Assembly (NCBI GenBank): GCA_964531275.1
Contig: CAZHDZ010000001.1
Span: forward strand, 144,945-208,944
DNA: 64,000 nt
Direction: 5' to 3'
Source: an uncultured Gammaproteobacteria bacterium
GTDB lineage: Bacteria > Patescibacteriota > Microgenomatia > Levybacterales > GWA1-39-11
Made by a program: the position numbers and the translations under genes. Below, piece after piece: positions 23,172-40,800 of the stretch (position 1 is the stretch's first letter; every line of letters starts with the position of its first letter). Under the pieces are notes generated by a model, which did no database searches, was not told the origin of the DNA, and worked only from the letters and a program-made list of their open reading frames with translations.

Positions 23172-23180
23172 CAGTAAGTT

Positions 23181-24245
23181 ATGCTCATTGCAGTCGACGT
23201 TGCCCCTATAAGTTCCCAGACAGATAGTCAACACAAGGTTCGTGGTGTAGGAATGTACTTAAGCCTTTTGAAAGATAATCTTGAAAAGTATGACAGAAGG
23301 AATAACTATATCTTTAGTTCTAACATCCGGGAGGATGGCAAAGAGGCAGATATAGTACATTATCCATACCTCGATCCTTTTTTTGTAACCTTTCCTATTT
23401 TTAAAAAGAAAAAAACGGTAATTACTGTACACGATCTTATCCCAATTTCATATCCAAAACATTTTCCTGCAGGCGTAAAAGGTAAGATATCTTGGCAAAT
23501 AAATAGAAAAATCCTACATCAAGCAGACCTTATCTTGGCAGACTCAGAAGCTTCCAGGGAAAATATAGTAAAGTTTGTTGGTGTTTCCCACCAAAAAGTT
23601 AAAAGTGTTCTCTTGGGTGTTTCAGAGCATTTTAGGAAAGTAAATCTTCACCAAAATGACAGCGCAGCTATTTCTGAAAAGTACAATCTTCCAAAGAATT
23701 TTTTCTTGTATGTAGGAGATGTCACATGGAATAAAAATCTGCCTACGCTTATTAAAGCCGTTAAAGAGGTTAATATTCCAATCGTCATGGTTGGAAAAGC
23801 TCTGGTTACAGATTTTGACAAATCGAACATGTGGAACAAAGACAGAATAGTAGTTAGTTCAGAGACTAGCTCTAAGCTTTTTATTAAGCCGGGCTTTGTG
23901 AGCGAGGAAGAATTAGTAAAGCTTTACAATATGGCTATTGCAGTATGCATGCCTTCGGTGGATGAAGGATTTGGACTTCCCGTTCTTGAAGGGATGAGTT
24001 GCGGAACTCCAGTTATTGTCTCAGGTAGGGGTAGCTTGCCTGAAGTTGCTGGTGAAGCAGGCATATACGTTGACCACGCTAATTATCTGGATATTGCTTC
24101 TAAAATGCGTGATGTAGCTAACAACCGCGCTGTATATCAAAAATACAGCGACCTTTCCTTGAAGAGGTCACATTTTTTTTCAATTGAAAAAATGATAAGA
24201 GAGACGATTAGTGCATACGAACTTTTAAATGAAAAAACATCTTAA
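23181..24245 (+). CDS. Glycosyltransferase family 4
   Basis: The C-terminal domain motif is PSVDEGFGLPVLEGMSCGTPVIVSGRGSLPEVAGEAG. Confidence 0.8.
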   Translation: MLIAVDVAPISSQTDSQHKVRGVGMYLSLLKDNLEKYDRRNNYIFSSNIREDGKEADIVHYPYLDPFFVTFPIFKKKKTVITVHDLIPISYPKHFPAGVKGKISWQINRKILHQADLILADSEASRENIVKFVGVSHQKVKSVLLGVSEHFRKVNLHQNDSAAISEKYNLPKNFFLYVGDVTWNKNLPTLIKAVKEVNIPIVMVGKALVTDFDKSNMWNKDRIVVSSETSSKLFIKPGFVSEEELVKLYNMAIAVCMPSVDEGFGLPVLEGMSCGTPVIVSGRGSLPEVAGEAGIYVDHANYLDIASKMRDVANNRAVYQKYSDLSLKRSHFFSIEKMIRETISAYELLNEKTS

Positions 24246-25482
24246 TAAAGCTCTCAAAAACCCTCTTTTTGCAGGTTCATTCTTCCTGTTTTCGGGGGGT
24301 CTTTTAGCTAACTTCTTTAACTTTCTTTTTAACTTACTTATGAGTAGAAATTTAATTGTTGAAGAATATGGTCTCCTAACAAGCATTGTTTCATTAATAA
24401 CGTTACTCTCAATTCCCGCAGGTGCAGTAACACCAACAGTTGTAAGCACCGCAGGAGAATATTTTGCGAATAAAAAGAATAATTTTCTTCATGCGTTTTA
24501 TATTAAGCTTTTTCGACCTCTAGCTATTTCAGGAGTAATACTAATGGTGCTGTTCTTCGTTTTTTCAAAACAAGCTGAGGCTTTTTTTAACATTCACAAT
24601 CCACTTTTATTTTTTATAGCAATTATTTGTGTTCTTATTTCATATATGACAACGCTCAATAATTCTTTTGCACAAGCAAGTCTTGCTTTTAGATATTTAT
24701 CTTTCTCAAACGCTATAGCTGCTTTTGTGAAAGTTGCTTGTGCTTTTTTGCTTGTATTAATGGGGTGGGGCTTATATGGGGCAATTTTTGGATTTGTGGC
24801 ATCCACACTCGTTCTATTTGGCTTTGGGATTTATTACCTGAGAGGTATTATATTTTTTAAAGCTGATGCAGTTCCAAGCATTTCATACAAAGAACTTATC
24901 TCATTTGGGATTCCATCAGCGGTAATAATATTTTGCTTGAATGCTCTTATCTCAAACGACATTTTATTAGTTAAGCACTTATTTAGTGCCTATGAAACTG
25001 GGCAATATGCAGGTCTATCGTTAGTTGGCAGAGTTATTTTTTATATTAGTGCTCCCGTAAGTACTGTCATGTTCCCAATCTTAATAAATAGGTATGCTTC
25101 CAACCAAAATTACAAAGGAGTATTGTATCTTTCAATTTTTATAGTCGGTTCTTTCTGTCTGCTGATAACGTTGTTTTATTCCCTTTTTCCTGAGTTTGCT
25201 ATACTTTTCTTCCTTAAAAACAAAGAATACCTCGAAATAAGTAAGTACCTTCCGTTGTTTGGCATATTCATAACTTTATATTCTGTGCTTTCTCTATTTG
25301 CTTACTATTTTCTTTCGATTAAAAAAACAAGTTTTGCTTGGATTCTTCTTTCCGGAACGATTACCCAGGCAGTACTAATATACACATTTCATGCAGATTT
25401 TGGCCAAATTGTGTTATCCTCAATAGCTGTTGCAGCAAGCCTTCTTTTAGTATCTATATATCTACTAAAAGCACAAAAATAG
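24229..25482 (+). CDS. Wzx-like polysaccharide/oligosaccharide flippase (MOP superfamily)
   Basis: 417 aa with about 12 TM helices. The N-terminus (...NFLFNLLMSRNLIVEEYGLLTSIVSLITLLSIP) is typical of the polysaccharide biosynthesis protein family. It lies in the glycan locus. Confidence 0.6.
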   Translation: MKKHLNKALKNPLFAGSFFLFSGGLLANFFNFLFNLLMSRNLIVEEYGLLTSIVSLITLLSIPAGAVTPTVVSTAGEYFANKKNNFLHAFYIKLFRPLAISGVILMVLFFVFSKQAEAFFNIHNPLLFFIAIICVLISYMTTLNNSFAQASLAFRYLSFSNAIAAFVKVACAFLLVLMGWGLYGAIFGFVASTLVLFGFGIYYLRGIIFFKADAVPSISYKELISFGIPSAVIIFCLNALISNDILLVKHLFSAYETGQYAGLSLVGRVIFYISAPVSTVMFPILINRYASNQNYKGVLYLSIFIVGSFCLLITLFYSLFPEFAILFFLKNKEYLEISKYLPLFGIFITLYSVLSLFAYYFLSIKKTSFAWILLSGTITQAVLIYTFHADFGQIVLSSIAVAASLLLVSIYLLKAQK

Positions 25483-25543
25483 TTTTTTCTTCTTTAAGGT
25501 CATTGCTTAATAACGCGAGCTAACTTAAAATAGCAGAAAGTCG

Positions 25544-27424
25544 ATGAACAAAGGAAAAATTCGAAGAATCTCCCTCATTATTCCTGCCTACAAACAAGAA
25601 AAAACGATAGTTTCAAATGTCAAAAAGCTGGTTACTGTTATGAAAGAGCTTAAATATGCGTTTGAAATAATTATTGTCGTAGACGGAAGGCTGGACAAAA
25701 CATATGAGAGAATAAAAGAGCATCAGTCATCACGAATCCGAGTTTACCAGTATAAGGACAATCAAGGAAAGGGTTATGCTGTGAAGTTTGGTGCGGCAAA
25801 GGCTAGGGGGGATGTCATTGGTTTTCTGGATGCAGGACTTGATATTGATCCCACAGGGGTCTCGATGCTGTTAAATCATATGATTTGGTATGACGCAGAC
25901 GTTATAGTCGGAAGCAAAATGCATCCAGCGTCACAAGTTGACTATCCATTTTATAGAAAAATGTTTTCGTGGGGATATAGAACTTTTACTCACTTGCTTT
26001 TTGGACTGAGAGTTAAAGACACTCAGGCAGGTATCAAATTTTACAAAAAAAAAGTAGTTGAGGATGTTTTTCCAAGGCTTCTTGTAAAAAATTTTGCATT
26101 TGATATCGAAATTTTGGCTCTTGCTTACGCTCTTGGCTACAAAAGGATTTACGAGGCTCCTATTAGACTACAATTTACAGGCGTAAGCTCAATCACTTCC
26201 AGAAGTCTTTGGAAAATTATTTCATTAATGATAATTGATACTATCGCAATATTTTATAGAGTAAGAATTATAAAATATTACCGAAACAGTAATAAAACGA
26301 ATTGGCTAACGAATAAGAAATCAAGAATATTAGTTCTCAACTGGCGTGATCCCTATCATCCTCTTGCAGGTGGAGCCGAAATATCTTTGAATCAGCACGT
26401 TAAGTATTGGGTAAAAAAAGGCATAGACGTTACGTGGTGCACCTCAAGATACGAAGGAAGCCTGCCAATCGAACGACGCGATGGGATTACCTTTATAAGA
26501 AAGGGAAATCATTTCACAAGCTTTATGATATTTCTCTTTTATTTCAACTTTCACAGAGACAGATACAGCCTCATAATCGATAGTTTTCACTTTTTTCCAT
26601 ACTTTTCAGTTTTTTATAAGAATAAGCCGGAAATTGTAGGACTTATAAATGAAGTTGCGGGAAAAATTTGGTTCAAAAATCTTATTTTCCCCTTGGCTCT
26701 TATTGGATATCTGCTTGAGCCATATATCATTAGACTTTATAAAGGTAGGACCTTCATTACAGGTTCTGAGTCAGCCAGAGACGACTTAGTTAAAATTGGA
26801 ATCTCTAAGAAAAAAATTCATGTTATACATCATGGATTTACGCCATCAAAAAAGTTACAAAAATCGAAAAAGAATCCATTTGGATTGGTGTTTCTTGCCA
26901 GGATATCAAAGGACAAAGGAATTGAGGACGCATTGGAAGTGGTCAAGAAAATATCAAAAAAACACAAAAAGATTGAGCTGACCGTAATTGGTAAAAGTGA
27001 ATCGGATAAATATCAAGCTTATGTTAAAAAACTTATTAAGGACAAAAAGATACAAAAAAATTGCAAGATTGTCGGTTTTGTGAATGAGCAGGAAAAATTT
27101 AGAATTCTGGCTCAGTCAAAGCTTTTGATCCATCCATCCATTAAAGAAGGATGGGGTCTTAACGTGATCGAAGCAAACTCCGTAGGCACTCCAGCAGTTG
27201 GTTACAAAGTTGAAGGATTGGTTGATTCCGTAGTGGATCGCGAAACAGGATTACTTGTACCGATGGATATCGACAACCTTTATGAAGCAACCCTTTCACT
27301 TTTGGATAATCAGGAATTGTACGAGCAGCTTTCGAGGAAAGCTATCGGCTGGTCAAAAAAGTTTAGTTGGAGTGAGGCAGGAAAAGAAAGCTACAATCTT
27401 CTTAAAAAAAGAATGTCGCTTTGA
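25544..27424 (+). CDS. Bifunctional glycosyltransferase: an N-terminal GT2 (Dpm1-like, with TM segments) fused to a C-terminal GT4
   Basis: The N-terminal part reads ISLIIPAYKQEKTIVSNVKKL...IIVVDGRLDKT...DAGLDIDPTG. The C-terminal part reads LIHPSIKEGWGLNVIEANSVGTPAVGYKVEGLVDSVVDRETGLL. A hydrophobic linker lies between the two halves. Confidence 0.75.
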   Translation: MNKGKIRRISLIIPAYKQEKTIVSNVKKLVTVMKELKYAFEIIIVVDGRLDKTYERIKEHQSSRIRVYQYKDNQGKGYAVKFGAAKARGDVIGFLDAGLDIDPTGVSMLLNHMIWYDADVIVGSKMHPASQVDYPFYRKMFSWGYRTFTHLLFGLRVKDTQAGIKFYKKKVVEDVFPRLLVKNFAFDIEILALAYALGYKRIYEAPIRLQFTGVSSITSRSLWKIISLMIIDTIAIFYRVRIIKYYRNSNKTNWLTNKKSRILVLNWRDPYHPLAGGAEISLNQHVKYWVKKGIDVTWCTSRYEGSLPIERRDGITFIRKGNHFTSFMIFLFYFNFHRDRYSLIIDSFHFFPYFSVFYKNKPEIVGLINEVAGKIWFKNLIFPLALIGYLLEPYIIRLYKGRTFITGSESARDDLVKIGISKKKIHVIHHGFTPSKKLQKSKKNPFGLVFLARISKDKGIEDALEVVKKISKKHKKIELTVIGKSESDKYQAYVKKLIKDKKIQKNCKIVGFVNEQEKFRILAQSKLLIHPSIKEGWGLNVIEANSVGTPAVGYKVEGLVDSVVDRETGLLVPMDIDNLYEATLSLLDNQELYEQLSRKAIGWSKKFSWSEAGKESYNLLKKRMSL

Positions 27425-27461
27425 CAGAGAGCTAAATATTGTGTAATCTAGACGAATTGAA

Positions 27462-28619
27462 ATGAATAAGTTTATACATTTTGCGCAACCTCTTTTTGGT
27501 GACGAGGAAAAAAAGGAGGTCATAAAGGCACTTGATTCAGGTTGGGTAACCTTAGGCCCGGGTACAAAAGCATTTGAAGAGCAATTTGCCAGCTATACAG
27601 GTGCTAAATATGCGGTGGCACTTAGTTCATGCACAGCAGCACTTCATTTAGCCCTTATCGCGGCAGGCATAGGCCCAGGCGACGAAGTAATCACTACAAT
27701 TTTTACATTTTCAGCCACAATAAATCCAATACTTCACGTAGGAGGAATACCAGTGCTTGTCGACATAGATGAAAAGACAATGAATATAGACCCGGAACTG
27801 ATAGAGCAGAAGATAACTTCAAAAACAAAAGCAATTATCCCAATGCACTACGGAGGATATCCGTGCGATATGGATAAAATTATGAAGATTGCCAGAAAGC
27901 ATAAGCTCATTGTTATAGAGGATGCTGCTACTGCAATTGGTACAACTTTCAAGAATAAAAGAGTTGGTAATATTGGAGATATGACCTGTTTTTCTTTTCA
28001 CCCAATTAAAAATATGTCAACTGGAGACGGTGGGATGCTTACTACAAATAGTAAGGGGTATGCAGAAAAAGTTGCTCTTTTAAGACTGCATGGAATGAGT
28101 AAAGAAGCATGGAAAAGACATACGGCGGCAGGTTCCTGGAAATATGACATTGTTGTGCCGGGTTTTAAATACAACATGACAGACATTCAGGCAGCATTGG
28201 GAAGAGTGCAACTTAGAAGGCTTGATAAATTTAACCAAACAAGGAAAAAATACGCAAAAATTTATAACAAAGAACTGTCAAAGATTTCTGAAATAACAGT
28301 TCCAACTTTTTCCGAGGATTCAGGTTCTTCCTATGATCTATATACGATAAGGATTAATACAAAAAAACTTTCAGTCTCACGAGATCAGATTGTTGACCTA
28401 CTTAAGGAGAAGGGAATAGGGGTAAGTGTTTATTACATTCCATTATTCGAGTTCAGTTACTTTAAGAGAGAATTGGGTCTTAAGAAAGCTAACTATCCAA
28501 AAGCAGCAAGGGTGTATGAAAATATGATGTCACTTCCTTTGTATCCCAAAATGAGTACTGATGATTTAAAGCGTGTTATAGCTACTCTTTCTGGAATAAT
28601 TAATTCTCACCGTAAATGA
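27462..28619 (+). CDS. PLP-dependent nucleotide-sugar aminotransferase, DegT/DnrJ/EryC1/StrS family (WecE/ArnB/PglE-like)
   Basis: The sequence contains LFGDEEKKEVIKALDSGWVTLGPGTKAFEEQFASYTGAKYAVALSSCTAALHLAL. The PLP-lysine motif FSFHPIKNMSTGDGG is intact. Confidence 0.85.
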   Translation: MNKFIHFAQPLFGDEEKKEVIKALDSGWVTLGPGTKAFEEQFASYTGAKYAVALSSCTAALHLALIAAGIGPGDEVITTIFTFSATINPILHVGGIPVLVDIDEKTMNIDPELIEQKITSKTKAIIPMHYGGYPCDMDKIMKIARKHKLIVIEDAATAIGTTFKNKRVGNIGDMTCFSFHPIKNMSTGDGGMLTTNSKGYAEKVALLRLHGMSKEAWKRHTAAGSWKYDIVVPGFKYNMTDIQAALGRVQLRRLDKFNQTRKKYAKIYNKELSKISEITVPTFSEDSGSSYDLYTIRINTKKLSVSRDQIVDLLKEKGIGVSVYYIPLFEFSYFKRELGLKKANYPKAARVYENMMSLPLYPKMSTDDLKRVIATLSGIINSHRK

Positions 28620-29317
28620 ACCCTCAATACGCCTGGTCTCCAAATAATTTTGATGCAGAAATACTTGGTGTCAATGTTGCAAAAATAACGACAGTTAACG
28701 ATTTAGGATCTATAAAAAAAATGCTCATTGAACTAGCTGATAATAAAATTGAATATGCACATTACAGATTAAAATCTAATGAAATAGAGATTATCCAAGA
28801 GCTTGAGAGAAATGGATTTATTTTTGTTGATGGTACGATTGCATTTATTAATGAGAATTTAGGTAATGATGATAGAATTAATTCAATCCGACTGGTAGAT
28901 CCAAAGGAAATAGAAAATCTTAAAGAAATCGCCTCGACCTTTCATGGCACGCGTTTTTTTAATGATTCACGAATTGATAAGAGAACGGCAACCGAAATAT
29001 ACAAAAGGTGGATCGAAAATTCAGTGAAGGATGAGACGGTCCAGGTTTTTGTATATACTGATGATGAAAAAATTTCAGGATTTGTGACTGTCCAAGATGA
29101 CCATATTGTTCTCATTGCAGTAAAGTCAGAAATGCAGGGTCGAGGGATAGGCAAAAAATTAGTTAAGCATGCCTTAGCTGTTATTAAAAAAAATGGTTTT
29201 AACTCGGCTTATATAGAAACCCAAATGCAGAACATCCCTGCTATTGGTGCCTATATCTCAAACGGATTCAAGGTGCTTGATACTTATGTAACTCTTGCAT
29301 GGGGAAAGACGCCTTAG
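28616..29317 (+). CDS. GNAT N-acetyltransferase, WecD-like (amino-sugar N-acetyltransferase)
   Basis: 233 aa. It has a C-terminal GNAT motif (EMQGRGIGKKLVKHALAVIKKNGFNSAYIETQMQNIPAIGAYISNGF). It is ATGA-coupled directly downstream of the DegT aminotransferase, as in the wecE-wecD arrangement. Confidence 0.6.
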   Translation: MNPQYAWSPNNFDAEILGVNVAKITTVNDLGSIKKMLIELADNKIEYAHYRLKSNEIEIIQELERNGFIFVDGTIAFINENLGNDDRINSIRLVDPKEIENLKEIASTFHGTRFFNDSRIDKRTATEIYKRWIENSVKDETVQVFVYTDDEKISGFVTVQDDHIVLIAVKSEMQGRGIGKKLVKHALAVIKKNGFNSAYIETQMQNIPAIGAYISNGFKVLDTYVTLAWGKTP

Positions 29318-29330
29318 TACAATGCAATCC

Positions 29331-30797
29331 ATGATCCTTTTAGGTCTTATTATCCCCGCGATCGCTATCATTTTTGAATCCTATCCAAGATTAGTTAATA
29401 GAAAGTTTGGGGTGGATATATGGACACATCTTCTTTATCTTAGGGAATACAGAAAACAAAATCGGATTCCTCAAAAAATAACTCATGGATTTCTCGTGCC
29501 GGGAGTTTATGATTACCCACCAGCATTTATATTTATAATGTCTAAATTTCCTGAAAAACTTGTAAAAAAGTATGAATTTTTGTTTTCGCCAATATTTGAT
29601 GCCTTACATCTTTTTTTGATCTTCATCCTAATCGTGAGTATTACGCAGAATATCTATCTAGCTCTTTTAACACAACTGCTTTATGTTGTAACCCCCATTG
29701 TAGTACTTGAGAATTCAAGCGCTACTCCAAGATCTCTTGGATATACCTTATTTTCAATTGTTTTTATGCTTTTGTATTTCTTCGGAGTTAGTCAAAATTT
29801 TTATTACTTTTTAGCCGCAATACTTGCAGGATCACTAATATTCCTATCACATAGATTCACATCTCAAGGATTTCTTTTTTACTCGGTTATTTTTTCGCTG
29901 TATTTTTTAACTCCAAATTTCATCATAGCATTTGTGTTGTCATTTCTTCTTGCTATAGTCTTTTCAAGAAAGTTTTACCTCACAGTTCTTCGTGGCCATT
30001 TGGGAAACTTAAAATTTTGGTATCAAGTAATAGCCTTTAGGTTTTACCATCAGGTTAAAGGAGAGTCTCGAAAGAATTCAAGTAATGATTTTGTCTTTAA
30101 TTTATACAATCAGTTTCTGAAGTTTCCGCCTTTTATTCTTGCTATTACTAACCCTTGGGTAATAGCTAGCGTTTATGGTATTTTGATTGGTACGCACAGT
30201 TCCCTTGTAAGTTATTTCATTGTATGGGTGATCACGTCATATGTATTGGCAATTCTAACTCTGTGGGTTCCCAAATTAAGATTTCTTGGAGAAGGGCAAA
30301 GATATCTGGAATTATCTGCTTTTCCTGCGGCATTTGTTGCAGCTCAACTATTTCTAGAATTCTTTAATAGTAAAAACCCCTTTGTTGTAGCTCTATACTC
30401 TTTTATATCAACTCTTTGCATAGTAACAATAGTTGTAATCCAAAGAAAGGCAATTATTAAAGATAGACTTAGAACAATTACTCCTGAGCTTTCAAATATG
30501 TTTGTTTATCTTAGAGCTCTTAAGAAAAAGCCAAAATTATTATGTATTCCACATCAAATAACTACGAATGTGATTTATCACACAGGATGTCCTGTATTTG
30601 TAAATGCGGACTACACGCATATATCAAGAATTTCAGATGTTTACCCTTATTTAAAATTACCAATTAAAAAAATCATGAAAAAATATGGCCTTGAGATGGT
30701 TCTTCTAAATGAAGAGTATGCAACGGTGAAAGACCTAAGGATACATAAATACAAAATTGTAAAGAGGTTTAGCAATTACGTATTAATTTCAATCTAG
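29331..30797 (+). CDS. Polytopic membrane protein, family unknown (paralog of the ORF at 30800..32287)
   Basis: The ORF track starts at 29295, but alignment with the minus-strand paralog (MILLIAIIVPVLGFILQSYPRLFN versus MILLGLIIPAIAIIFESYPRLVN) favours the ATG at 29331. About 12 TM helices are predicted. Confidence 0.6.
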   Translation: MILLGLIIPAIAIIFESYPRLVNRKFGVDIWTHLLYLREYRKQNRIPQKITHGFLVPGVYDYPPAFIFIMSKFPEKLVKKYEFLFSPIFDALHLFLIFILIVSITQNIYLALLTQLLYVVTPIVVLENSSATPRSLGYTLFSIVFMLLYFFGVSQNFYYFLAAILAGSLIFLSHRFTSQGFLFYSVIFSLYFLTPNFIIAFVLSFLLAIVFSRKFYLTVLRGHLGNLKFWYQVIAFRFYHQVKGESRKNSSNDFVFNLYNQFLKFPPFILAITNPWVIASVYGILIGTHSSLVSYFIVWVITSYVLAILTLWVPKLRFLGEGQRYLELSAFPAAFVAAQLFLEFFNSKNPFVVALYSFISTLCIVTIVVIQRKAIIKDRLRTITPELSNMFVYLRALKKKPKLLCIPHQITTNVIYHTGCPVFVNADYTHISRISDVYPYLKLPIKKIMKKYGLEMVLLNEEYATVKDLRIHKYKIVKRFSNYVLISI

Positions 30798-30799
30798 AA

Positions 30800-32287
30800 T
30801 CAGATTTTGATAAGCTTTATGTCTCCTTCTCTAAAAACCACCTTTGATTTAGGAAGAGAAAGATCACTTTCTCTGGCAAAGCTTTCTCTTAGTAAAATGT
30901 AGTTCAAGGAGTACTCCTTCTTAAGGTTATAAATAGAGTCTTTGAGTATAGGAAAGAACTTTTCTAATTTCATAAGCCCTGGGTTATCAGCATTCACTAA
31001 CACATCTGCTTTTGTATTAAAAACAGTCATTGTTGTTACTTGATGTGGTATGCACATGATACGAGGGTTTCCGGGTAGTTTATTTATGAAAGCGTATACT
31101 TTTTCAAGCTCAGGAGTTAGAGACCTATTCTTATCTTTGATAATCCCCTTAATTTGTATATATATTGTCATGCATAGATTTATCAGCACTAAAGAAGTGA
31201 AACCAACAACTACGAGAGTCCCATATAGTCCGTATAAATAAAACACTAAAAAAGATGTAAGGATTGAGGCTGGCACTGTGCACATCTCAAGATACCTCTG
31301 GCCTTCACCTATAGGAATTAGGAATTTAAATCGCAAAACAAAACAGCCTAAAATATAGAAAAATAATATCCATAATGCAAAATAGGAGAGTATAGGATCT
31401 GCGTCAAGTAAATTATTAGCGTGATATAAGTATAAAAATACAAATGAGGAAGCAGCCCACACGTTTGTTATCAGTAAAAATATAGGCGAGAAGTCGGAAA
31501 GCAATTTATAAACTATTCCAACCCAGTCTGACTTTTTGTTACTTGAGAGGCCATATATTTGGTGTGCAAATCTGAAGCGATAATTAATAACCCAGAAATA
31601 AATATTGGAAAGGTGTCCATGCGCAACTCTTAGGTAATAACCCCTTGTTGTAATTACAGCTAGAGTAAATCCAAGAATTGGAACAGCTACAAAATGAACT
31701 GAACCAAGCAGCGATGCCATAAATACGCATATGAACAAGTACGCTTGCAATGCAAATCGGTGTGTAAGAAATAATATTGTTGAAGTGATTACTGCAATGA
31801 GTATTGTGGTATTTGTAGGATTAAGTTGATATGAAATTAACGGATAGAAAGCAATAGTAAAAGAAAGATAGCCTAGAGATCTAGGTGTGAGATAGCTATT
31901 TTCGACTACAACCATTGGGGTCATAATATAGACAAGCTGTGCTACTAATGACATAGCTATTGAATTTGTCATCTGATAGCAAATTACAAAGACTAGTATT
32001 GTTTGGAGAGAATCAATAAGAGGAGAGATAAAACCCTGATACTTAAGAATTGTTTTCTTAGAAAAGAAGGAAAACAGAAAAGGAAAGACTGGAGGGTAGT
32101 CAAAATTACCGGGAATTATAAAACCTTTTTCAACTTTATTTGGAATTCTGTGGTGGGCGTTTCTAAATGCCTGAATTTCAAGAAGCCGAGTCCAAACATC
32201 GACTCCAAAAGAACGATTAAATAGTCTTGGGTATGATTGAAGAATGAATCCCAGGACAGGTACAATAATTGCTATCAATAAAATCAT
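30800..32287 (-). CDS. Polytopic membrane protein, family unknown (paralog of 29331..30797)
   Basis: 495 aa with conserved blocks (SYPRLFNRSFGVDVWT, GFIIPGNFDYPPVFPF, GEGQRYLEMC, MCIPHQVTT). It is convergent with its paralog; the two stops are 2 nt apart. Confidence 0.6.
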   Translation of the reverse strand: MILLIAIIVPVLGFILQSYPRLFNRSFGVDVWTRLLEIQAFRNAHHRIPNKVEKGFIIPGNFDYPPVFPFLFSFFSKKTILKYQGFISPLIDSLQTILVFVICYQMTNSIAMSLVAQLVYIMTPMVVVENSYLTPRSLGYLSFTIAFYPLISYQLNPTNTTILIAVITSTILFLTHRFALQAYLFICVFMASLLGSVHFVAVPILGFTLAVITTRGYYLRVAHGHLSNIYFWVINYRFRFAHQIYGLSSNKKSDWVGIVYKLLSDFSPIFLLITNVWAASSFVFLYLYHANNLLDADPILSYFALWILFFYILGCFVLRFKFLIPIGEGQRYLEMCTVPASILTSFLVFYLYGLYGTLVVVGFTSLVLINLCMTIYIQIKGIIKDKNRSLTPELEKVYAFINKLPGNPRIMCIPHQVTTMTVFNTKADVLVNADNPGLMKLEKFFPILKDSIYNLKKEYSLNYILLRESFARESDLSLPKSKVVFREGDIKLIKI

Positions 32288-32289
32288 TA

Positions 32290-33249
32290 TTAGTAAGCAT
32301 CTTTTTTCCAGCCATATTCATCAACTAGTTCAAGAATTTCTTTTATGCCTTCTTCAATACCATACTGGGGGCTAAAATCTAGAAAGCCTTTTGCCTTTGT
32401 AATATCTTGCGCTCCACGAAAAACCTGTTGGACAGTGGGCTCTTTAACCTCATAAGAAAATTTTGGAAAATGTTTTTTAAGAATTTCTGCAAAATCTGTA
32501 GCAGATCTTGGTTCTCCTCTGGATATATTAAAAGTCTGGTATACAGCACTTGGTCTTTCTACTGTTAATGCAAATCCCTCGGCTACATCCTCAACGTATG
32601 AAAAGTCTAACGTCTCTCCTCTAACCACCCATGCAGATTTACTTGTCAGTGCGGCATCAAGGAGAAGCTGCGTCACACGGTTTGCTGCATCTGTGTATCC
32701 GTATACAGAGGTTGGTCTTACAATTACCCATTCTTTTTTTGAAAGCCTTACGAAATATTCTCCTGCAGCCTTGCATGCACCATAGCTATTTATAGGATTA
32801 AGGATAACGTCTTCGGGTTGTGGGCTTTTTGTGAAATGACCATAAGTCATGCTTGAAGAAGTGTAAATTATCTTTGTAGCGCTACTGGATTTTTCAAATT
32901 CTTCCAGAACATTAAGCGTTCCATATAGTGTGATTGGAATCATCTCATCTTCAAATTCTGGGAGAGGTCTTGCCATAGGAATTGCCGCAAGATGAATAAC
33001 GATGTTGGGATTGAATTCATCAAAGGCTTTCTTGACATGTGCTTTATTTCTAATATCACCTTTTAGACTGTATGAGATTTTATTTTTATAGAGTTTTTTC
33101 CTATGTAATAACGCTGCCTTATGATATTTTGGTTTGTTAATAAAGCTAGAATTGTTATCAAGCACCCCAACTTCATAACCTCGTCCAAGGAGTTTGTGTG
33201 CGACTGCACTTCCAATTAGTCCATTGCCTCCAGTTATGAGTACTTTCAT
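32290..33249 (-). CDS. NAD-dependent sugar-nucleotide epimerase/dehydratase (extended SDR)
   Basis: The sequence contains MKVLITGGNGLIGSAVAHKLLGRGYEVGVLDN and the catalytic YGACK (YxxxK). It forms a minus-strand operon with 30800..32287. Confidence 0.8.
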   Translation of the reverse strand: MKVLITGGNGLIGSAVAHKLLGRGYEVGVLDNNSSFINKPKYHKAALLHRKKLYKNKISYSLKGDIRNKAHVKKAFDEFNPNIVIHLAAIPMARPLPEFEDEMIPITLYGTLNVLEEFEKSSSATKIIYTSSSMTYGHFTKSPQPEDVILNPINSYGACKAAGEYFVRLSKKEWVIVRPTSVYGYTDAANRVTQLLLDAALTSKSAWVVRGETLDFSYVEDVAEGFALTVERPSAVYQTFNISRGEPRSATDFAEILKKHFPKFSYEVKEPTVQQVFRGAQDITKAKGFLDFSPQYGIEEGIKEILELVDEYGWKKDAY

Positions 33250-33321
33250 ATGTCCTTGATTGTAGACAAAGAATATGGTTTTATCAATATGTTAGTTTGG
33301 TAAGATAATTAAGATATTATT
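33250..33321. promoter_or_regulatory. AT-rich divergent intergenic region, probable bidirectional promoter region
   Basis: This is the only divergent junction in the window (a minus-strand SDR operon faces the + strand methyltransferase operon). The 72 bp are AT-rich. No confident -35/-10 pair was identified. Confidence 0.3.
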
Positions 33322-34020
33322 ATGCAAAGTAGAATGAAGTTTCTTGCTAAAAGAGATGGGAAGAATGTGCTTGTTCCGGGACATTACTTTCTCTTTAATT
33401 GGGTAAAGCCATATATAAAAGGAAAGTCAGTTTTGGATATTGGTTGTTGGAGTGGACCGTTAGAGGAATTACTACAAAGCGTGAAATGTAAAGTGACAGG
33501 CATCGACATAGAGACCGCTCCATTAAAAGTAGCGAGTAGAAGATTTCCTGACTTCATCTTTTTCAAACATTCAATAATAGAGCAATTACCAATTCAAAAA
33601 AACCTATTTGATGTAGTTTTATATTTTATGGTAATAGAGCATATTCCAAGAGGCAGCGAATTAGTATCTTTGTTAAATATAAACAGAAGCATGAAAAAGG
33701 GGGGAGTGTTATTCATAAATACAATGAATAATAATTTACTATCCAATATTTTGGATCCCGCGTTTCTTTTTGGCCATAGGCATTATTCAAAAAAAGAATT
33801 ATACTCACTATTAAACCTTTCAGGGTTTGAAGTCAAAGAAACAAAATTCAATGCTGGTTTTTATACAACACTATCAATATTAATTTTATACTTCTGCAAG
33901 CACATATTACATATTCCGGAGCCGAGAAATCGTGTTATAGATGCCCTTGTCAGGAGAGACTATCAAGATAAAGGTTTTGCGGAAATTGATATAAGGGCTA
34001 TTAAGATTAAAAACTTATGA
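33322..34020 (+). CDS. Class I SAM-dependent methyltransferase
   Basis: Motif I is VLDIGCWSGPLEELL, and the remaining Rossmann-type motifs follow downstream. Confidence 0.7.
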   Translation: MQSRMKFLAKRDGKNVLVPGHYFLFNWVKPYIKGKSVLDIGCWSGPLEELLQSVKCKVTGIDIETAPLKVASRRFPDFIFFKHSIIEQLPIQKNLFDVVLYFMVIEHIPRGSELVSLLNINRSMKKGGVLFINTMNNNLLSNILDPAFLFGHRHYSKKELYSLLNLSGFEVKETKFNAGFYTTLSILILYFCKHILHIPEPRNRVIDALVRRDYQDKGFAEIDIRAIKIKNL

Positions 34021-35027
34021 AAAAAGTGTCAATAATAATCGTAAATTGGAATGGTCTTTCACATTTAAAAAAGTGCTTGCCAACACTCAAGAAAGTCACG
34101 TACAAGAACTTAGAGATTATACTCGTAGATAATGCTTCAAAAGATGATTCAGTTGCGTATGTTACCAAAAACTTTCCAAATATTAAGATAATTAAATGTA
34201 AAAAAAATCTAGGTTTCGCCGGTGGCAATAATGCAGGACTACCAGCAGTTACAGGGGATTATGTGCTTCTCCTTAATAATGACACAGTTGTTACCAAAGA
34301 TTTCGTAACAGAGTTGGTTGCGGCAGTGGAGGAAGACGATGAAATCGGGATAGTTCAGAGCAAAATACTATCTATGGATTATCCAAATAAGCTCGATTCA
34401 GTAGGTGCATTTTTAACATATACCGGCTTTTTATATCACTACGGGTATTTCCAGATTGATAAACGGAAATATGACAAGACAAAGTATCTTTATACTGCAA
34501 AAGGGGCATGCATGTTGGTGCGAGCAGACTTAATAACTCGGCTAGGACTTTTTGACGATGACTTCTTCGCATATTTTGAAGAAACAGACCTGTGCAATAG
34601 AGTTTGGATGGCAGGATATACCATAGTGTATGCTCCCAAATCTGTCATATATCATAAGGTTGGTGGCACGTCTAATGGAATGGAAAATGCATTTATTCAA
34701 TTTCATTCATTCAAAAATAGAATCAACTCTTATATTAAAAACCTAGAAGTAAAGAACTTAGCGTTAATATTACCCATTCACATTATTCTTTGTGAAGTGG
34801 CCGCAATTAGTTTTATTTTCAAATCAAGAATAGATTTATTTATGGCAATTAACAAAGCACTTCTATGGAACATAGCCAATCTTGAAAAGACATTAGCGAA
34901 AAGAAAGAAAATTCAAAAAATGAGAAAAGTATCTGATAGTGAATTTTTTCCAAAGGTTTTGAGAAATCCAAATCTTAATTACTATTATTCCCTATTTGCT
35001 AAAAGCTTGATAGGCTATAAGGAATGA
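34017..35027 (+). CDS. Glycosyltransferase family 2
   Basis: The sequence contains VSIIIVNWNGLSHLKKCLPTLKKVTYKNLEIILVDNASKDDS and DTDLCNR. Confidence 0.8.
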   Translation: MKKVSIIIVNWNGLSHLKKCLPTLKKVTYKNLEIILVDNASKDDSVAYVTKNFPNIKIIKCKKNLGFAGGNNAGLPAVTGDYVLLLNNDTVVTKDFVTELVAAVEEDDEIGIVQSKILSMDYPNKLDSVGAFLTYTGFLYHYGYFQIDKRKYDKTKYLYTAKGACMLVRADLITRLGLFDDDFFAYFEETDLCNRVWMAGYTIVYAPKSVIYHKVGGTSNGMENAFIQFHSFKNRINSYIKNLEVKNLALILPIHIILCEVAAISFIFKSRIDLFMAINKALLWNIANLEKTLAKRKKIQKMRKVSDSEFFPKVLRNPNLNYYYSLFAKSLIGYKE

Positions 35028-37063
35028 AAAAATATCTACTTTTTCTTGTATTCCTTGGACTAACATTCCTCTACTACCACAAAACTCTGAGCTCGTATTT
35101 CGAAGGTGATGAGTGGTTTTATTTCTCGGAATACTTTCCGCTTTTGATTAATCCATTTCTAGGTTTTTTCGTGGCTATTACGAAAGGAGTAACTGATGCA
35201 TATTGGATTTCAGCGGGCGGTCATGTTACGCCGTTGCAAAGTTTGCTTTGGTTTTTTCTCATAGTATTTTTCAAGCTCAACTTCAAGTTCTATGCTGTAA
35301 GCTCGTTAGTTTTGCATGCAGTGAATGTATTTTTGCTCTATGCATTAACAAAACAAATAATAAAAGATAAATTTTTCGCCTTCTGTGTAGCTGCTTTTTT
35401 TCTTACGAACTCTGCCCATTTCCAAGCAGTCAATTGGGCTATGGTTATAGTCTATGACCTTTTTCTAACAACTCTAATTCTTTTGTCTTTGCTGAGTCTT
35501 TTAAAATTTGGAAAGAATCAGCGATGGGTAGTTATCTCTACTGTTTGTTTTGTAAGTGCTCTTATGATTAAAGAAACAGCTGCCATCTTATTTATTATCT
35601 ATCCATTATTCTCTGCTTTTTTTAAGGCTAAGTATTTTAAAAAAAGCTTGTTTGTAACTGCTGCAATCTTTGTGTCCTACGTGCCCTTTAGATTCATTCT
35701 CCCACGTTTTTTTTCTGAGGGTAAACTGTTTCAAAACAATCTTGAGATAGGAATAAAAACTCTCCAAGATTTTCAACTTATTGTTACTAATATGTTTGTG
35801 CAGGATATTTACCCTTCAACGCTTGGATTGATTAAGATTCACCCCATGAATATGGTTGTTGTAGCTGCTTTAATTCTGGGAATGGTCTTGTTCAATCGTC
35901 AATATATGGGTGCAAGGATTGTTGTTTTTGGTATAGCAATTACACTTCTGAATGCTTCTTTAATTCTTCTTACTTCCCTCTTTTCACCCAGGCAACTTTC
36001 TTTTGAAATTGTTGATTCTAGATATTTATATTTAGTTTCAATTAGCGTTTCTTTAATAATTATAGGTATATATGTGATTATTATTGAAGGTTTAGCCATA
36101 AAGACTAAGTTGCGATATGTCCCTTTGTCCTTATTAGTTTTTCTCATGGCAATATTTAATTACAATTTATTGCAAAGAATATTAACGCCATATGTTGAGA
36201 CAGCCAAGATGAGACAGGATATTCTCAATTCTATTTTTGATGAAGTTAAGACACCTAGCGATAGATCAATTTTTTTGGTAGAAAGTAGCGGAAATTATTA
36301 TGGCTTTGCTCAGATTCCGCCATTTCAAACAAATCTAGGGCAAGTGCTTGCAGTTCACTATTTTAGCAGTGGAAATCTAAATAAAAGATTTATAAATGAT
36401 AGATCAGTACAAAAGAATCCGCTAGACAAAAATTGGCTTCTTGTTGATGGAAATAAGTCATTTGGATATTACCTCAGTAGAGAGCAGCTTATACAAGATG
36501 CACTGAAATTTAATATAAGCCCTCAAACTGTTCATGCATACACATGGGAGCCTGAGGAGAAAAAACTTGAAAGAAATACAGAAAAATTCATTCCAGAGTT
36601 AGAGCTAGAACTTTCTCAGAGACAACAACTACGTGAATGGAAGAAAGTACATCTTGATAGTTTTAGTTTTAAGATAGACCCATCCTATTCTGAAACGCAT
36701 TTAGGGCAGGATTCAGTAGTTCTAGGACATAATGAAACAATAACTGTTAAACGCATGACTAAGGATCCATCTATTTTTTTCCATGACTTTGCTCCTAGTA
36801 TATTTGACAGCAATGGAGACAAGATCTTAGACAGGACAAAGTTGTTAAATATTACTAAAGAAAATGGCGAGTTGGTAACTACACTCTATGTTCTTTCAGG
36901 AAACTACCCAATGTATTTGATTCCAATTAGTGATGGTATTTCTTATATAGAAATTTCAGCTAATGGGAATAGGTTCTATAGAGACGTCGACTCGCTCGAT
37001 GAAGAAAAAAGAAATAGTTTTATTGAGTTAATAATCAAATCTATTATTCTTAAGAGTTCTTGA
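35024..37063 (+). CDS. Polytopic membrane protein with a large soluble C-terminal domain (GT-C-like, family uncertain)
   Basis: 679 aa. The N-terminal roughly 390 aa are hydrophobic. The C-terminal roughly 290 aa are hydrophilic. Confidence 0.5.
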   Translation: MKKYLLFLVFLGLTFLYYHKTLSSYFEGDEWFYFSEYFPLLINPFLGFFVAITKGVTDAYWISAGGHVTPLQSLLWFFLIVFFKLNFKFYAVSSLVLHAVNVFLLYALTKQIIKDKFFAFCVAAFFLTNSAHFQAVNWAMVIVYDLFLTTLILLSLLSLLKFGKNQRWVVISTVCFVSALMIKETAAILFIIYPLFSAFFKAKYFKKSLFVTAAIFVSYVPFRFILPRFFSEGKLFQNNLEIGIKTLQDFQLIVTNMFVQDIYPSTLGLIKIHPMNMVVVAALILGMVLFNRQYMGARIVVFGIAITLLNASLILLTSLFSPRQLSFEIVDSRYLYLVSISVSLIIIGIYVIIIEGLAIKTKLRYVPLSLLVFLMAIFNYNLLQRILTPYVETAKMRQDILNSIFDEVKTPSDRSIFLVESSGNYYGFAQIPPFQTNLGQVLAVHYFSSGNLNKRFINDRSVQKNPLDKNWLLVDGNKSFGYYLSREQLIQDALKFNISPQTVHAYTWEPEEKKLERNTEKFIPELELELSQRQQLREWKKVHLDSFSFKIDPSYSETHLGQDSVVLGHNETITVKRMTKDPSIFFHDFAPSIFDSNGDKILDRTKLLNITKENGELVTTLYVLSGNYPMYLIPISDGISYIEISANGNRFYRDVDSLDEEKRNSFIELIIKSIILKSS

Positions 37064-37141
37064 AATTATTGCAAGCATTATTTCGTTATCACTTTAAAGA
37101 AAAACATCATAAGTGATTCTATTAATAGCGTTATTATTATG

Positions 37142-37147
37142 TATAAT
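37142..37147 (+). promoter_or_regulatory. Candidate -10 element (TGTATAAT context) 8 nt upstream of the ATG at 37156
   Basis: TATAAT, preceded by TG, lies in the 92-bp gap that breaks the coupled gene chain. The -35 is weak (CTATTA/TTCTAT). It would give a near-leaderless mRNA. Confidence 0.25.
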
Positions 37148-37155
37148 CAATTGAA

Positions 37156-37830
37156 ATGAAAGCAAAAAAATTTGAAGAGTCTTATTTTAAAGGGTGGTAT
37201 AAGAGTGCTGTTGGCAATTTTACAGCAGAAGATTTAAAAATTTCGAAGCGTTGGTTTTACGCTTGGCTTGTAAAGCTTAATGAATATGTGCCTTTACAAA
37301 AGGGTCATGGGAAGAGGGTTCTTGAGATAGGTTGTTCCATAGGTGCAGTATCTAACTTGCTTTCTGAAAGAGGGTTTAGTGTTTGGGCAACAGACATCTC
37401 AAGTTATGCAGTAAAAAAAGCTCAGAAATTGACTCCAGCTGCTAAATTTTCAGTTTTAGATATTCAGCAAAAGATAACTCTAAAAGAGAAATTTGATTAC
37501 ATTATCGCATTTGAAGTTGTAGAGCATTTAGACAAACCAGAGAAGAGTATAAAGAATATGTATGATGCACTTATACCACGGGGGAAAGTAATCGTTTCAA
37601 CACCTTTTCCGTATCCTTGGAATTTTCGAGACCCAACCCACATAAATGTTAAATACCCAAATGAATGGGTTGCTATCATGAAAGAGGTAGGATTTAAAAA
37701 GGTGTCATATCATAGATTTACCCTTATACCATTCTTCTACAGATTTAATAAAAGATTTCAATTTATAATTCCATTTGCTATACCGCTCCCATATTTAAAC
37801 AGTCCTATTTTCTTTATTGGTACTAAATGA
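37156..37830 (+). CDS. Class I SAM-dependent methyltransferase
   Basis: Motif I is VLEIGCSIGAVSNLLSERGFSVWATDIS, and the post-I motif is IIAFEVVEHL. Confidence 0.7.
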   Translation: MKAKKFEESYFKGWYKSAVGNFTAEDLKISKRWFYAWLVKLNEYVPLQKGHGKRVLEIGCSIGAVSNLLSERGFSVWATDISSYAVKKAQKLTPAAKFSVLDIQQKITLKEKFDYIIAFEVVEHLDKPEKSIKNMYDALIPRGKVIVSTPFPYPWNFRDPTHINVKYPNEWVAIMKEVGFKKVSYHRFTLIPFFYRFNKRFQFIIPFAIPLPYLNSPIFFIGTK

Positions 37831-40800
37831 AACGAATCAAAAGAAGCAGGGTCGAGATTATCGTTATTATTTTGCTTGGATTAATTCCGTTGCTGTGGTT
37901 TCGTGGCACAGAAGTTATATTAGGACATGATTCAGGTCTACCTCTATCACCGATACCCCACTTCTTAGACCGTCTATACGCATGGACTGTAAGATTTGGA
38001 TTTGGCAACGATCAGACATATGCAATTCCCGGCTTCTTTATTCATGGTTTGGAAGCTTTAGTTTCTTCCTTGGGATTTGATTTGCAGTCAATGCAAAAAA
38101 TTACTTTTTCCATTTGGTTTGTTCTCCCCGGAGTTACTATGTATTACTTAGGAAGCCGTCTTGAAAAAAAACTAAAGATTAATTTTCTAAGTCTGCCTGC
38201 AGCAGTTTTTTACATGATTAATCATTTTTTATTGCAGGGATGGTTTGTGGCAGAAAGAACTAAATTTTCAGTATATGCTGCGCTTCCTCTCATGATAGCG
38301 ATCCTATTAGATTGGAGTGACGGAAGGAGGAAGACGTTTACCGCTGCCGTATTAATTGCTCTGATATTTTTTGTACTGAATGGTTTGGCAAGCTTACCAC
38401 TATTTGGAGGGGTGATTATTGCCTTGATTGTTTTTATTTTTTACTATTTATATCAGCAGTTTTCATGGATAAGGATAGGATCACTCTTTCAACTTTTTGG
38501 TGTAACGTTAGTAGTAAGCGTTGCGCTTCATGCATACTGGCTGGTACCTTTTGTATTTTCATTAAAAACTTCCTATAGCGAGTCTGTGACTTTTTTTGGC
38601 GGGAAGGAGGGAATTCTTGATTGGGTAAAATACGCAAGCCTTAATAGCTCCTACAATAATCTATTGCGCCTGCAAGGGGTTCCTGAGTGGTACCAAAATC
38701 CTGGTCACCCATATGCAAATAATTTCTTAACTAATCCTCTGCTTATTTTTATTAGTGTTGCAATCCCCATTTGTGTTTTTTCAACACTTCTTATTTTTAA
38801 GAAGAGCGCTGAAAAAAAAGTAATACTTTTTTTTGGCCTTCTGGCTATAGTCTCTTTGCTATTCGTTGCAGGTGCACATCCACCTTTCGGAACTTTGTAT
38901 ATTTTCTTAATGCAAAATATTCCAGGGTTTATAGCATTCAGAAATCCATTCTACAAATTTTCTCCCTCATTATGGCTTGCATATGCTGTTCTTATTGGCT
39001 TTTTTATAAGCTTTATCATGAGTAGGGTCGTTGTAATAAACAAAAAAATTGCTTATGTTTTTTATTCGTTCGTAATAATTGGAATAGTACTTTATAGCTA
39101 CCCATTCCTTAATGGTACTTTTTTTGATTATGTTAAAAACGAACGCTCAAATAGAGTTGTGGTTCCATCCTATATTATGGACTTTGGTAAATGGAGTGAG
39201 AGTAGGGAGAGGATAGATAAAAAAACTTTAATGTTGCCCCCTCCGAATATTGATGGAACTGTGGAGGAATACACCTGGGGATATTGGAGTCTAGCACCAA
39301 TCAGTACGCTTTTGACAAATGCTCCAATTCTTAATAATAGCCTGTTCCTGGGTAAAAACGAAAAGACCATGCTTACCACTCTATATTCAATGATGGAAAA
39401 GGATGAGCAAGGTTGGGAACAGCTAGCTAAAATAATGGGGATAGACTCTTTTGTTGTAAGAGATGATTTTGTTTGGGATAATCCCTCTTCGCCTTCAGTA
39501 AATCCTGCCGTTTATCAAAAAGCATTAACATCCAAAAATGTTCAAAAGGTAAAAGAATTTGAGAAGTGGCATATATACGATCTCAAAGAAGGACGGGATG
39601 ATTTTCTCCAATATAACACCTATTCTTTTGTAGCCGGTGATGTAGGAACTATTGGAAAAATTGCATCTCTTCCTGGGTATTCTTATGAAGAGCCTTTAGT
39701 AGCAGATACGAACGGAAATAGTTTGCTCAAAATGAGTCCAAACACCTACTATCTTGATAGTTATTGTGTGATGTGTGATTTGCAGTGGAAATTTATAAAT
39801 ACACTTGCTTATACACCAACAATTACGCAAGGGTCATTTATGTACCCTATCATAGGGAGGAATGTGTATCAAGAAATTTCTTTGCTGGATCAACCGCAGG
39901 AACTGGCTATATATTATTCAGAAAAGGCGCTGCGAGATATATTAGGTCTACAAAAAAGTATTGATTTAGCAGAAAAAGATGACGTTTTAAAAGAGATAAT
40001 AACCGACATCGAGGAGGACTTATTTAATATAAGAAGAACGGTGCAGTTAAGTCAAAATGAAATTAATAATGTCACGAAACTAGACATACTATCATTCATA
40101 AGAACGCAAAAAGTAGTTATTAGCCAAATTAAGGAAAAAAATTTAAGTTCGATTTCTATGGATAAGATGCTTAAGGCAATCGAAATTAATGAAAGTTTTT
40201 TAAATCAAATTACCTTTAGAACCTCATCAGAAACAAAGAAGCAACTATTGGTAACTTCGCCAATAGCCCATGAATATAGTGTGTATTATCGACCTAATGA
40301 TAATATTGAAGATAGCAATTCTGTAAGCATTTCAATAAATAATCAGCAGCTTATTTTACCTGTTCTTGAAGAAGATGGGCGGTGGAGAAAGCTTTCTGAA
40401 GTAAATTTAAATAAAGGTCTGAATACTATAGTTGTTCAACAGCCAATTAATGATATTCAGAAGCAAAAATCAGTCAGGCTTGTTGAGTCAACCAATGGTT
40501 GTTATTATTCCGAGAAGATTGATTCAAAACGTGGAGATATATTTAAGCTTACATTTGATCATAGACTTTTATCCAGCTACGATAAGTTCTTCGTAACATT
40601 TGTACCTGCTGGAGAAAGCGTTGATAAGGCACCTAGTATAGATTCTCTAACATCGGTAAAAGGCAGTAGACTCTATGAGACTACATACGCGCCAATTGCT
40701 GGACGTAGCTTTCAATTCGTTATTTGTAACACTTCTATACACAATGACCCTAAGCATTCCGATATACAAATTGAGAATATAAGTATGCGAAAAATAGCTG

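Follow-up and report, generated by a model that had tools for sequence, protein, structure and literature searches.

A convergent pair of predicted GT-C class A glycosyltransferases from an uncatalogued family in a Patescibacteria surface-glycan locus

Introduction

Characterised glycosyltransferases (GTs) of the GT-C class A fold take their sugar from a polyprenyl phosphate or diphosphate on the non-cytoplasmic face of the membrane (PMC13503287, PMC11127046, PMC10920833). The class is defined by a conserved N-terminal module with seven transmembrane (TM) helices, after which comes a variable C-terminal module (Alexander & Locher, quoted in PMC13503287); its first luminal loop consists of two helices, the first of which bears the catalytic base, an Asp or a Glu (PMC13503287). 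To this fold belong the catalytic subunits of oligosaccharyltransferases (OSTs), STT3, AglB and PglB (CAZy family GT66), as well as ArnT (GT83) and PMT_2/PMT (GT39). In GtrA/GtrB/GtrC, CsbB/YfhO and GT136 systems a GT2 enzyme loads the lipid, a flippase exports it and the GT-C enzyme adds the sugar outside; new GT-C families in such three-component systems, GT136 for example, are typically recognised by fold alone (PMC11127046, PMC8035078). Here we describe two paralogous open reading frames (ORFs), A and B, that meet tail to tail in 64,000 nt of DNA from a Levybacterales genome deposited as an uncultured Gammaproteobacteria bacterium (assembly GCA_964531275.1, contig CAZHDZ010000001.1, positions 144,945 to 208,944; 'the window'), and whose products are very probably glycosyltransferases of this fold.

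Results

Two paralogs with a predicted GT-C class A fold

The pair consists of the following elements.

29322..30797, + strand: ORF A (paralog A), 491 amino acids (aa) from the ATG at 29322, or 488 aa from the ATG at 29331
30798..30799: 2-nt spacer between the convergent stops, read from the sequence and the same in a second assembly
30800..32287, - strand: ORF B (paralog B), 495 aa; the commoner type, which occurs alone in many genomes

As a first, sequence-only reading of this DNA had stated, the two ORFs converge with their stops 2 nt apart: the TAG of A occupies 30795-30797 and the TGA of B (TCA on the + strand) 30800-30802. Three starts are listed for A (TTG 29295, ATG 29322 and ATG 29331), of which ATG 29322 is the more likely because the database protein P0001, 100% identical to A, has 491 aa. 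BLASTP aligns A and B end to end with 185/496 identities (37%), 59% positives, 10 gap positions and E = 2e-115. The motifs SYPRL.NR.FGVD.WT, GEGQRYLE and CIPHQ are present in both and are invariant, or nearly so, across 69 family members. Judged by this alignment, the full-length homology of A and B, which the earlier reading had also claimed, is beyond doubt, and the two belong to one family.

We built AlphaFold2 models of both proteins with a 69-sequence alignment (pLDDT 91.6 for A and 91.9 for B; pTM 0.91 for each) and compared them with the PDB using Foldseek, taking E <= 1e-3 as significant and the best 50 matches listed per model. At this threshold there were 24 matches for A and 26 for B, every one a GT-C glycosyltransferase. 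The best matches of both models were OST catalytic subunits, namely yeast and human STT3 (E ~1e-6; query TM-score, TMq, up to 0.64), archaeal AglB and bacterial PglB, together with ArnT (E ~2e-5) and the C-mannosyltransferase DPY19 (E 1e-5, TMq 0.63); ALG9/12, Pmt4, AftA/B, EmbA/B and AftD matched more weakly. The alignments to STT3 and DPY19, with TMq up to 0.64, span more than 500 columns. Since the seven N-terminal helices make up only 43% of the protein, a TMq of 0.63 suggests that the C-terminal half superposes as well. In the 50 best PDB matches listed per model, WaaL and SEDS-type (RodA/FtsW) entries do not occur.

The architecture of the models agrees with that of the class. Seven hydrophobic helices extend to about residue 211, and are followed by four more and by a C-terminal alpha/beta domain of only ~110 aa that lies on the face opposite the N-terminus. 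The models are best read as 11 spanning helices plus interfacial ones, rather than the 12 TM segments counted in the sequence-only reading, a number that hydropathy alone could give. The first loop has the two-helix form of GT-C class A in both proteins: in A, TM1 (2-22) is followed by a helix at 28-43, which starts at D29, and by a second at 64-70, after the invariant D61-Y-P and before TM2; in B the corresponding helices are at 29-43 and 67-72.

Across 69 A and B sequences 55 columns are invariant, and they include D29, D61, D90, E127-N128, R134, H174-R175, Q179, H223, R237, Q241, D253, E321, R324, E327, C405-x-P-x-Q and N425-A. D29 of A (D30 of B), invariant in all 69, lies where the first of the two loop-1 helices begins. 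Neither protein contains the WWDYG motif (no W.D[YFW]G and no WWD) or a loop-5 motif of the SVSE/TIXE type. Taken together, the models make it very probable that A and B are glycosyltransferases of the GT-C class A fold.

In an exhaustive profile search the family yielded 1,465 representatives of clusters at 50% identity (E <= 1e-3), 310 of them at E <= 1e-30, and nearly all members are ~500 aa long. Those with names come from Levybacteria, Daviesbacteria, Roizmanbacteria and the 'Patescibacteria group'. By these searches, the family is uncatalogued and abundant in Microgenomates-type Patescibacteria (candidate phyla radiation, CPR). As far as could be searched, we found no paper on GT-C enzymes or oligosaccharyltransferases in Patescibacteria/Levybacteria, nor on the A/B family.

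Genes beside the pair

The following genes flank A and B.

23181..24245, + strand: GT4 (Pfam), in the conserved upstream block
24229..25482, + strand: Wzx-type flippase (Pfam), in the conserved upstream block
25544..27424, + strand: GT2+GT4 fusion (Pfam), in the conserved upstream block
27462..28619, + strand: DegT-type sugar aminotransferase (Pfam; PseC/ArnB/WecE-like NCBIfam matches below cut-offs)
28616..29317, + strand: WecD-like GNAT N-acetyltransferase, directly upstream of A (Pfam; WecD-like NCBIfam match below cut-offs)
32290..33249, - strand: extended short-chain dehydrogenase/reductase (SDR), GalE-like (Pfam Epimerase, 1.5e-36; NCBIfam matches all far below cut-off)
33250..33321: divergent intergenic region of 72 nt with back-to-back promoter-like sites
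33322..34020, + strand: methyltransferase (Pfam), in the conserved block beyond SDR-B
34017..35027, + strand: GT2 (Pfam), in the conserved block beyond SDR-B
35024..37063, + strand: U679, a multi-pass membrane protein of 679 aa with TM-like peaks, no Pfam match and conserved synteny

The order GT4, Wzx, GT2/GT4, DegT, GNAT and A on the + strand, B and SDR on the - strand, then methyltransferase, GT2 and U679 on the + strand, is conserved across many species. DegT and GNAT are conserved beside the A/B slot, and the block on the U679 side (methyltransferase, GT2, U679) is conserved also in loci that have B but no A. The stop of the SDR lies 2 nt from the start of B on the same strand, and the two genes are neighbours in related loci too. 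SDR-B is faced by the neighbourhood's best promoter-like match (- strand, 33287..33259, 10/12), and a second (+ strand, 33281..33309, 9/12) faces methyltransferase-GT2-U679; both are consensus matches only. Co-transcription of B with the SDR, assumed in the sequence-only reading, is therefore plausible from the spacing and the upstream site. The SDR carries GxxGxxG, 'SSSMTYG' and YxxxK, a GalE-like Ser-Tyr-Lys set. We considered whether it could be a 4,6-dehydratase feeding DegT and GNAT and rejected this, as it has the GalE-like SSS...YxxxK and lacks the dehydratase Asp-Glu.

History of the pair

Related loci, to which we gave numbers with the prefix L, were obtained from database look-ups and a scan of species-representative genomes, and their ORFs were sorted with A- and B-specific hidden Markov models; 19 loci were fetched, of which 17 are distinct. 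A and B are on opposite strands in all of these, and convergent in all except L012 (4424..7479), whose B and A are divergent and stand head to head. Nine distinct loci have either stops 2 nt apart (the window) or ORFs that overlap by 4-33 nt, and in seven A and B are separated by other genes (PMT_2, GNAT or SDR) over 0.8-3.4 kb. The convergent A/B arrangement recurs in about 16 related loci and in at least 14 other species-level genomes, and in the fetched loci a B on the opposite strand lies no more than 3.5 kb from each A whose flanking sequence is long enough.

In 16 assemblies a B-type copy alone was found. Eleven of these B-only loci match the window locus except that A is missing, so that B converges directly on another gene; L032 and L035 are short or without conserved order; and in L021 (Daviesbacteria), L025 and L033 a single B-like gene stands co-directionally after GNAT, in the slot of A. 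Gaps between B and GNAT where A is absent are +7, -14, +4 and +9 nt, and they range from -14 to +11 nt where A is absent or displaced. The variants in L012, L021, L025 and L033 show repeated small inversions at the A/B site. The inverted SDR-B unit is most likely an old and widespread feature, and A an additional copy in some lineages only.

In a neighbour-joining tree, a crude method, A and B form reciprocally monophyletic sister clades with the distant members outside. Compared codon by codon in the alignment, A and B share 50% of their DNA; where the residue is identical, the third position agrees in only 42% of cases (near-saturated), and a single stretch of 59 nt at 71% is all that is left of an inverted repeat in the DNA. 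By these measures the duplication is ancient, with no sign of gene conversion; an inverted duplication, as the earlier reading supposed, is a reasonable origin of the pair, if an old one. The data fit an inverted duplication beside B with later loss in some lineages, and they also fit a gain in one lineage in which A diverged fast at first.

Both ORFs are intact. A has orthologs at 55-78% identity, as has B, and mean column identity is alike in the two types (0.71 for A, 0.69 for B). The types are fixed differently at 23 positions; they cluster in loop 1 (33, 36, 60, 67, 82, 83), in loop 2 (131), at positions flanking loop 5 (318, 319, 328) and in the C-terminal domain (420, 428).

Between the SDR and the GT4 of the syntenic locus, L003/L004 carry a 120-aa gene (1371..1733) with matches to the Pfam families 23S_rRNA_IVP / bAvd (four-helix-bundle, Avd-like). 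Many metagenome-assembled genome (MAG) records (TPA_asm; L007, L009, L012, L015-L017, L019-L036) are titled 'uncultured Gammaproteobacteria bacterium' while their locus is of Patescibacteria type, and these names are probably placeholders or wrong.

The junction

A second assembly (Logan, SRR12762304; contig of 11,174 bp) covers 28999..31797 of the window, 2,799 bases, with zero mismatches, and has the same genes and the same 2-nt spacing. Base composition is even across the junction. The A/B junction is real, and not the assembly error that the sequence-only reading had allowed for.

We searched the junction for a terminator-like site, a hairpin or an unusual RNA structure and found none (RNA fold z = +0.5), in agreement with the earlier remark that there is no room for a terminator; read-through is therefore possible, as it is at most junctions of this genome. 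The window is ~99% coding, the median intergenic gap is -4 nt, 36/48 junctions are <=5 nt, and the second convergent junction in the window (45669..46202 on the + strand, 46199..47782 on the - strand) overlaps by 4 nt. Because coding is this dense and the gaps this short, we see in the abutment of A and B no evidence for antisense regulation or for a heterodimer; most likely it is a by-product of extreme genome compaction, ordinary for this genome, and not a regulatory device. Nor is the antisense cross-regulation that had been suggested supported by the spacing, which is not conserved among related loci; there B lies directly against the gene on its 3' side, whichever that is.

The wider glycan locus

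Positions 1..60900 of the window are nearly all one glycan locus (~60 kb) with A and B in its middle. It encodes at least 12 GT-C-like membrane proteins, with at least 10 in addition to A and B. Among its genes are the following.

448..2094: PTPS_related GT-C-like protein
2072..4423 and 6542..8770: YfhO GT-C-like proteins
9702..10430: AglJ/ArnC/PpgS-like GT2 (below cut-offs)
10427..11662: GT87
starting at 13641, 15260, 16942, 18455, 19747 and 53398: six PMT_2-type paralogs
41141..41458, + strand: protein of 105 aa with four TM-like segments and no family match
60261..60899: Bac_transf initiating transferase

The locus also contains many GT2 and GT4 genes, GalE, two DegT aminotransferases, a nucleotidyltransferase and several large multi-pass proteins outside known families. 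Five of the latter have no Pfam match: 11665..13644 (659 aa), 35024..37063 (679 aa), 37827..41144 (1105 aa), 41462..43315 (617 aa) and 50331..53516 (1061 aa, with ~21 TM-like peaks). Two of the five have weak NCBIfam matches to the MmpA family, and the homolog of the 1105-aa protein in L040 has a weak match to GT-C_AftD. The small product of 41141..41458 is conserved in its place between the 1105-aa and 617-aa proteins (also in L040); its size and shape fit a small lipid-sugar flippase of the GtrA/SMR type, which is a guess. ORF 53398..54981 (TTG start) overlaps the preceding gene for the 1061-aa protein by 119 nt, and its true start is probably further downstream, because its PMT_2 match begins at residue 118-137.

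The A/B site had been taken as the only place where the locus changes strand, and this needs correcting, as 46199..47782 is also on the - strand. Its product (527 aa, ~10 TM) has a large first loop ('FDDCFNYLGGYF'), a C-terminal soluble domain and no Pfam match, and looks GT-C-like. The gene is flanked by 45669..46202 (+ strand; 177 aa, the N-terminal domain of a GT4 only), which its stop overlaps by 4 nt, and by a complete GT4, the divergent 47791..48903 (+ strand), which begins 8 nt from its start.

Discussion

How A and B compare with the described systems can be seen most directly with STT3, AglB and PglB. A and B resemble them in structure (TMq 0.52-0.64, E ~1e-6): all are multi-pass proteins whose outer loop 1 holds a conserved acidic residue and whose loops 2 and 5 hold others, and in all of them the last TM helix is followed by a soluble C-terminal domain. 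They differ in having no detectable sequence similarity to these enzymes, no match to the STT3 profile and no WWDYG, and in being smaller throughout (~490 aa against 640-870 aa, ~11 TM against 13, and a C-terminal domain of ~110 aa against one of several hundred). ArnT and PMT_2/PMT share the fold class; A and B, however, match neither PF13231 nor PF02366, and their TM-score to ArnT (0.39-0.44) is below those to the OSTs or DPY19. A likeness to the Arn pathway is seen in the neighbourhoods of the family, whose aminotransferase, N-acyltransferase, SDR, GT2, deacetylase and EamA-type transporter parallel ArnB, ArnA, ArnC, ArnD and ArnE/F; distant members, for instance, adjoin genes for a formyltransferase, DegT, an SDR, a deacetylase and EamA. 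The loading, export and transfer steps of Gtr-like systems follow the same logic as we propose below, but next to A and B no dedicated loader or flippase was identified, and there are two paralogous GT-C proteins instead of one. Candidates in the window are, for the GT2, 9702..10430, the GT2 half of 25544..27424 and 34017..35027, and, for the flippase, Wzx and 41141..41458. Pmt1-Pmt2 and EmbA-EmbB are, like A and B, anciently duplicated GT-C paralogs, heterodimeric or side by side (emb), with catalytic residues kept; the emb genes are co-directional, whereas A and B are convergent and B is often alone, so that the two types do not always co-occur. Of the GT-C class B or Wzy-WaaL-SEDS type, neither WaaL nor RodA/FtsW stands among the 50 matches listed for each model, and there is no Pfam match.

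On balance we favour the reading that A and B are two independent extracytoplasmic enzymes with a lipid-linked sugar donor, which differ in their acceptors or linkages. Since all characterised GT-C class A enzymes use such a donor on the non-cytoplasmic face, we infer that A and B, too, use a polyprenyl-linked sugar on the outside. D29 (A) or D30 (B) would be the catalytic base, while contact with the lipid phosphate would fall to invariant Arg and His residues. The donor would most likely be a polyprenyl-phosphate-linked N-acylated amino sugar supplied by the adjacent aminotransferase and acetyltransferase. Such a donor is favoured because the family repeatedly adjoins genes for sugar aminotransferases and for N-acetyl- or N-formyltransferases (GNAT in the window, Formyl_trans_N in L041, L043 and L044); in L041 these stand with an SDR, a GT2, a polysaccharide deacetylase and a small transporter of the EamA type, a group reminiscent of the ArnA-F/ArnT set. 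One chemistry is probably applied to two acceptors or linkages, which fits with both copies keeping the putative catalytic set while most of the 23 fixed differences are found in outer loops or in the C-terminal domain. The two proteins would work separately, B being the ancestral one, widely kept in the inverted two-gene SDR-B unit, and A an extra.

Several results weigh against the proposed fold or function. At the level of sequence, A, B and ten distant relatives have no Pfam (E <= 0.01) or NCBIfam match, and the family profile run against PDB sequences gave chance matches only and no GT-C enzyme. The family alignment also showed no significant similarity by hhalign to the six PMT_2/PTPS paralogs of the window (probability 0.4%, E 0.15); the same non-significant alignment pairs D29 with the invariant Asp of the PMT_2 proteins and R134 with their invariant Arg, which is suggestive only. 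The description of A and B as members of an unknown family thus stands as far as Pfam and NCBIfam go, but their kind can be recognised from the Foldseek matches. In addition, each protein has ~45 Lys/Arg, nearly all on the face that carries the invariant residues and is presumed to be outer, and the five presumed cytoplasmic turns, of 2-4 residues each, have ~1 positive charge altogether. If the canonical GT-C orientation, itself drawn from the fold, holds, this pattern runs counter to the positive-inside rule. As to the donor, the best structural matches are OSTs, which use lipid-diphosphate-oligosaccharides and not lipid-phosphate-monosaccharides; the obvious candidate for a polyprenyl-phosphate sugar synthase (9702..10430) lies 19 kb off; and Wzx is the sole flippase identified, 41141..41458 having no family match. 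The independence of A and B, finally, is drawn only from B-only genomes, and these are incomplete MAGs.

An alternative is that A and B use a lipid-diphosphate-oligosaccharide and act as OST, ligase or polymerase on the repeat unit flipped by Wzx, filling the role of Wzy, WaaL or an OST. We regard this as possible but rather unlikely. It would account for the rank of STT3, AglB and PglB among the structural matches of both proteins, for the consistent presence of the family in Wzx loci with no recognisable Wzy or ligase, and for the abundance in loops 1, 2 and 5 of invariant acidic residues, which recall the OST metal site; moreover, some Wzy families (clan GT-C3) also have a long loop near the N-terminus (PMC10920833). 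However, the OST motifs are absent (WWDYG and the SVSE/TIXE type of loop 5), the C-terminal domain is short, there is no STT3 Pfam match, and no WaaL or RodA/FtsW is among the structural matches listed. Nor does Foldseek separate the OSTs (E ~1e-6, TMq <=0.64) from DPY19 (E 1e-5, TMq 0.63), which uses dolichyl-phosphate-mannose. The tight coupling to amino-sugar tailoring genes, as with ArnT in the Arn pathway, also argues for the lipid-phosphate-sugar donor that we favour.

A heterodimer of A and B on the model of Pmt1-Pmt2 or EmbA-EmbB, with overlapping convergent transcripts balancing subunit expression, seems improbable to us. Paralogous GT-C pairs are known to heterodimerise, and Pmt1-Pmt2 and EmbA-EmbB are among the structural matches; A and B both keep all conserved residues; A, given enough flank, is always accompanied by an opposite-strand B (fetched loci); and no terminator fits between the genes. 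On the other hand, the 16 assemblies with B and no A, mostly with the same locus and an empty A slot, speak against the module with both subunits that the sequence-only reading had put forward. The spacing runs from a 33-nt overlap to 3.4 kb with inserted genes, L012 is divergent, B is equally close to GNAT where A is missing or lies elsewhere, genes of the window as a rule abut or overlap, and the 150 best representatives of the family include no A-B fusion protein. The B-only genomes contradict an obligate heterodimer, and we give only a slim chance to a facultative complex in the lineages with both A and B.

A bolder combination of these alternatives would make the A/B family a new GT family, spread across the CPR, that supplies the missing end-step enzyme of Wzx-dependent loci: a minimal relative of the OSTs without WWDYG, which would transfer a lipid-diphosphate-glycan to surface proteins or wall polymers, with A and B as a Pmt1-Pmt2-like heterodimer in lineages that have the two. 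We think this doubtful. A further-going variant, to which only the charge distribution points, would have the fold inserted with its conserved face on the cytoplasmic side. It is exceedingly unlikely that the junction comes from a mis-joined or inverted contig, or that the inverted duplication is recent and one copy is in decay, as nothing but the unusual look of the junction speaks for it, and the identical sequence from a second assembler, the recurrence in at least 14 other species-level genomes, the even composition, the two intact and equally conserved ORFs with orthologs of their own at 55-78%, the DNA identity of only 50% and the single 59-nt inverted repeat at 71% speak against it.

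Two independent enzymes thus remain the reading that we prefer, and the tail-to-tail arrangement itself has no special meaning. On the strength of the models, A and B represent a new sequence family within the known GT-C class A fold. The family clearly deserves consideration as a new CAZy GT family, because it comprises ~1,465 clusters at 50% identity and has, as far as could be searched, no Pfam, NCBIfam or literature entry. The pair would be a natural experiment on the evolution of acceptor specificity in GT-C enzymes, because the catalytic set is invariant while the 23 switched positions lie in outer loops. CPR/Patescibacteria genomes are tiny, yet ~60 kb here is nearly all surface-glycan genes, with more than a dozen GT-C-like membrane enzymes, of which several match no catalogued family, and the A/B family may offer a handle on how episymbiotic bacteria build the surface with which they contact their hosts.

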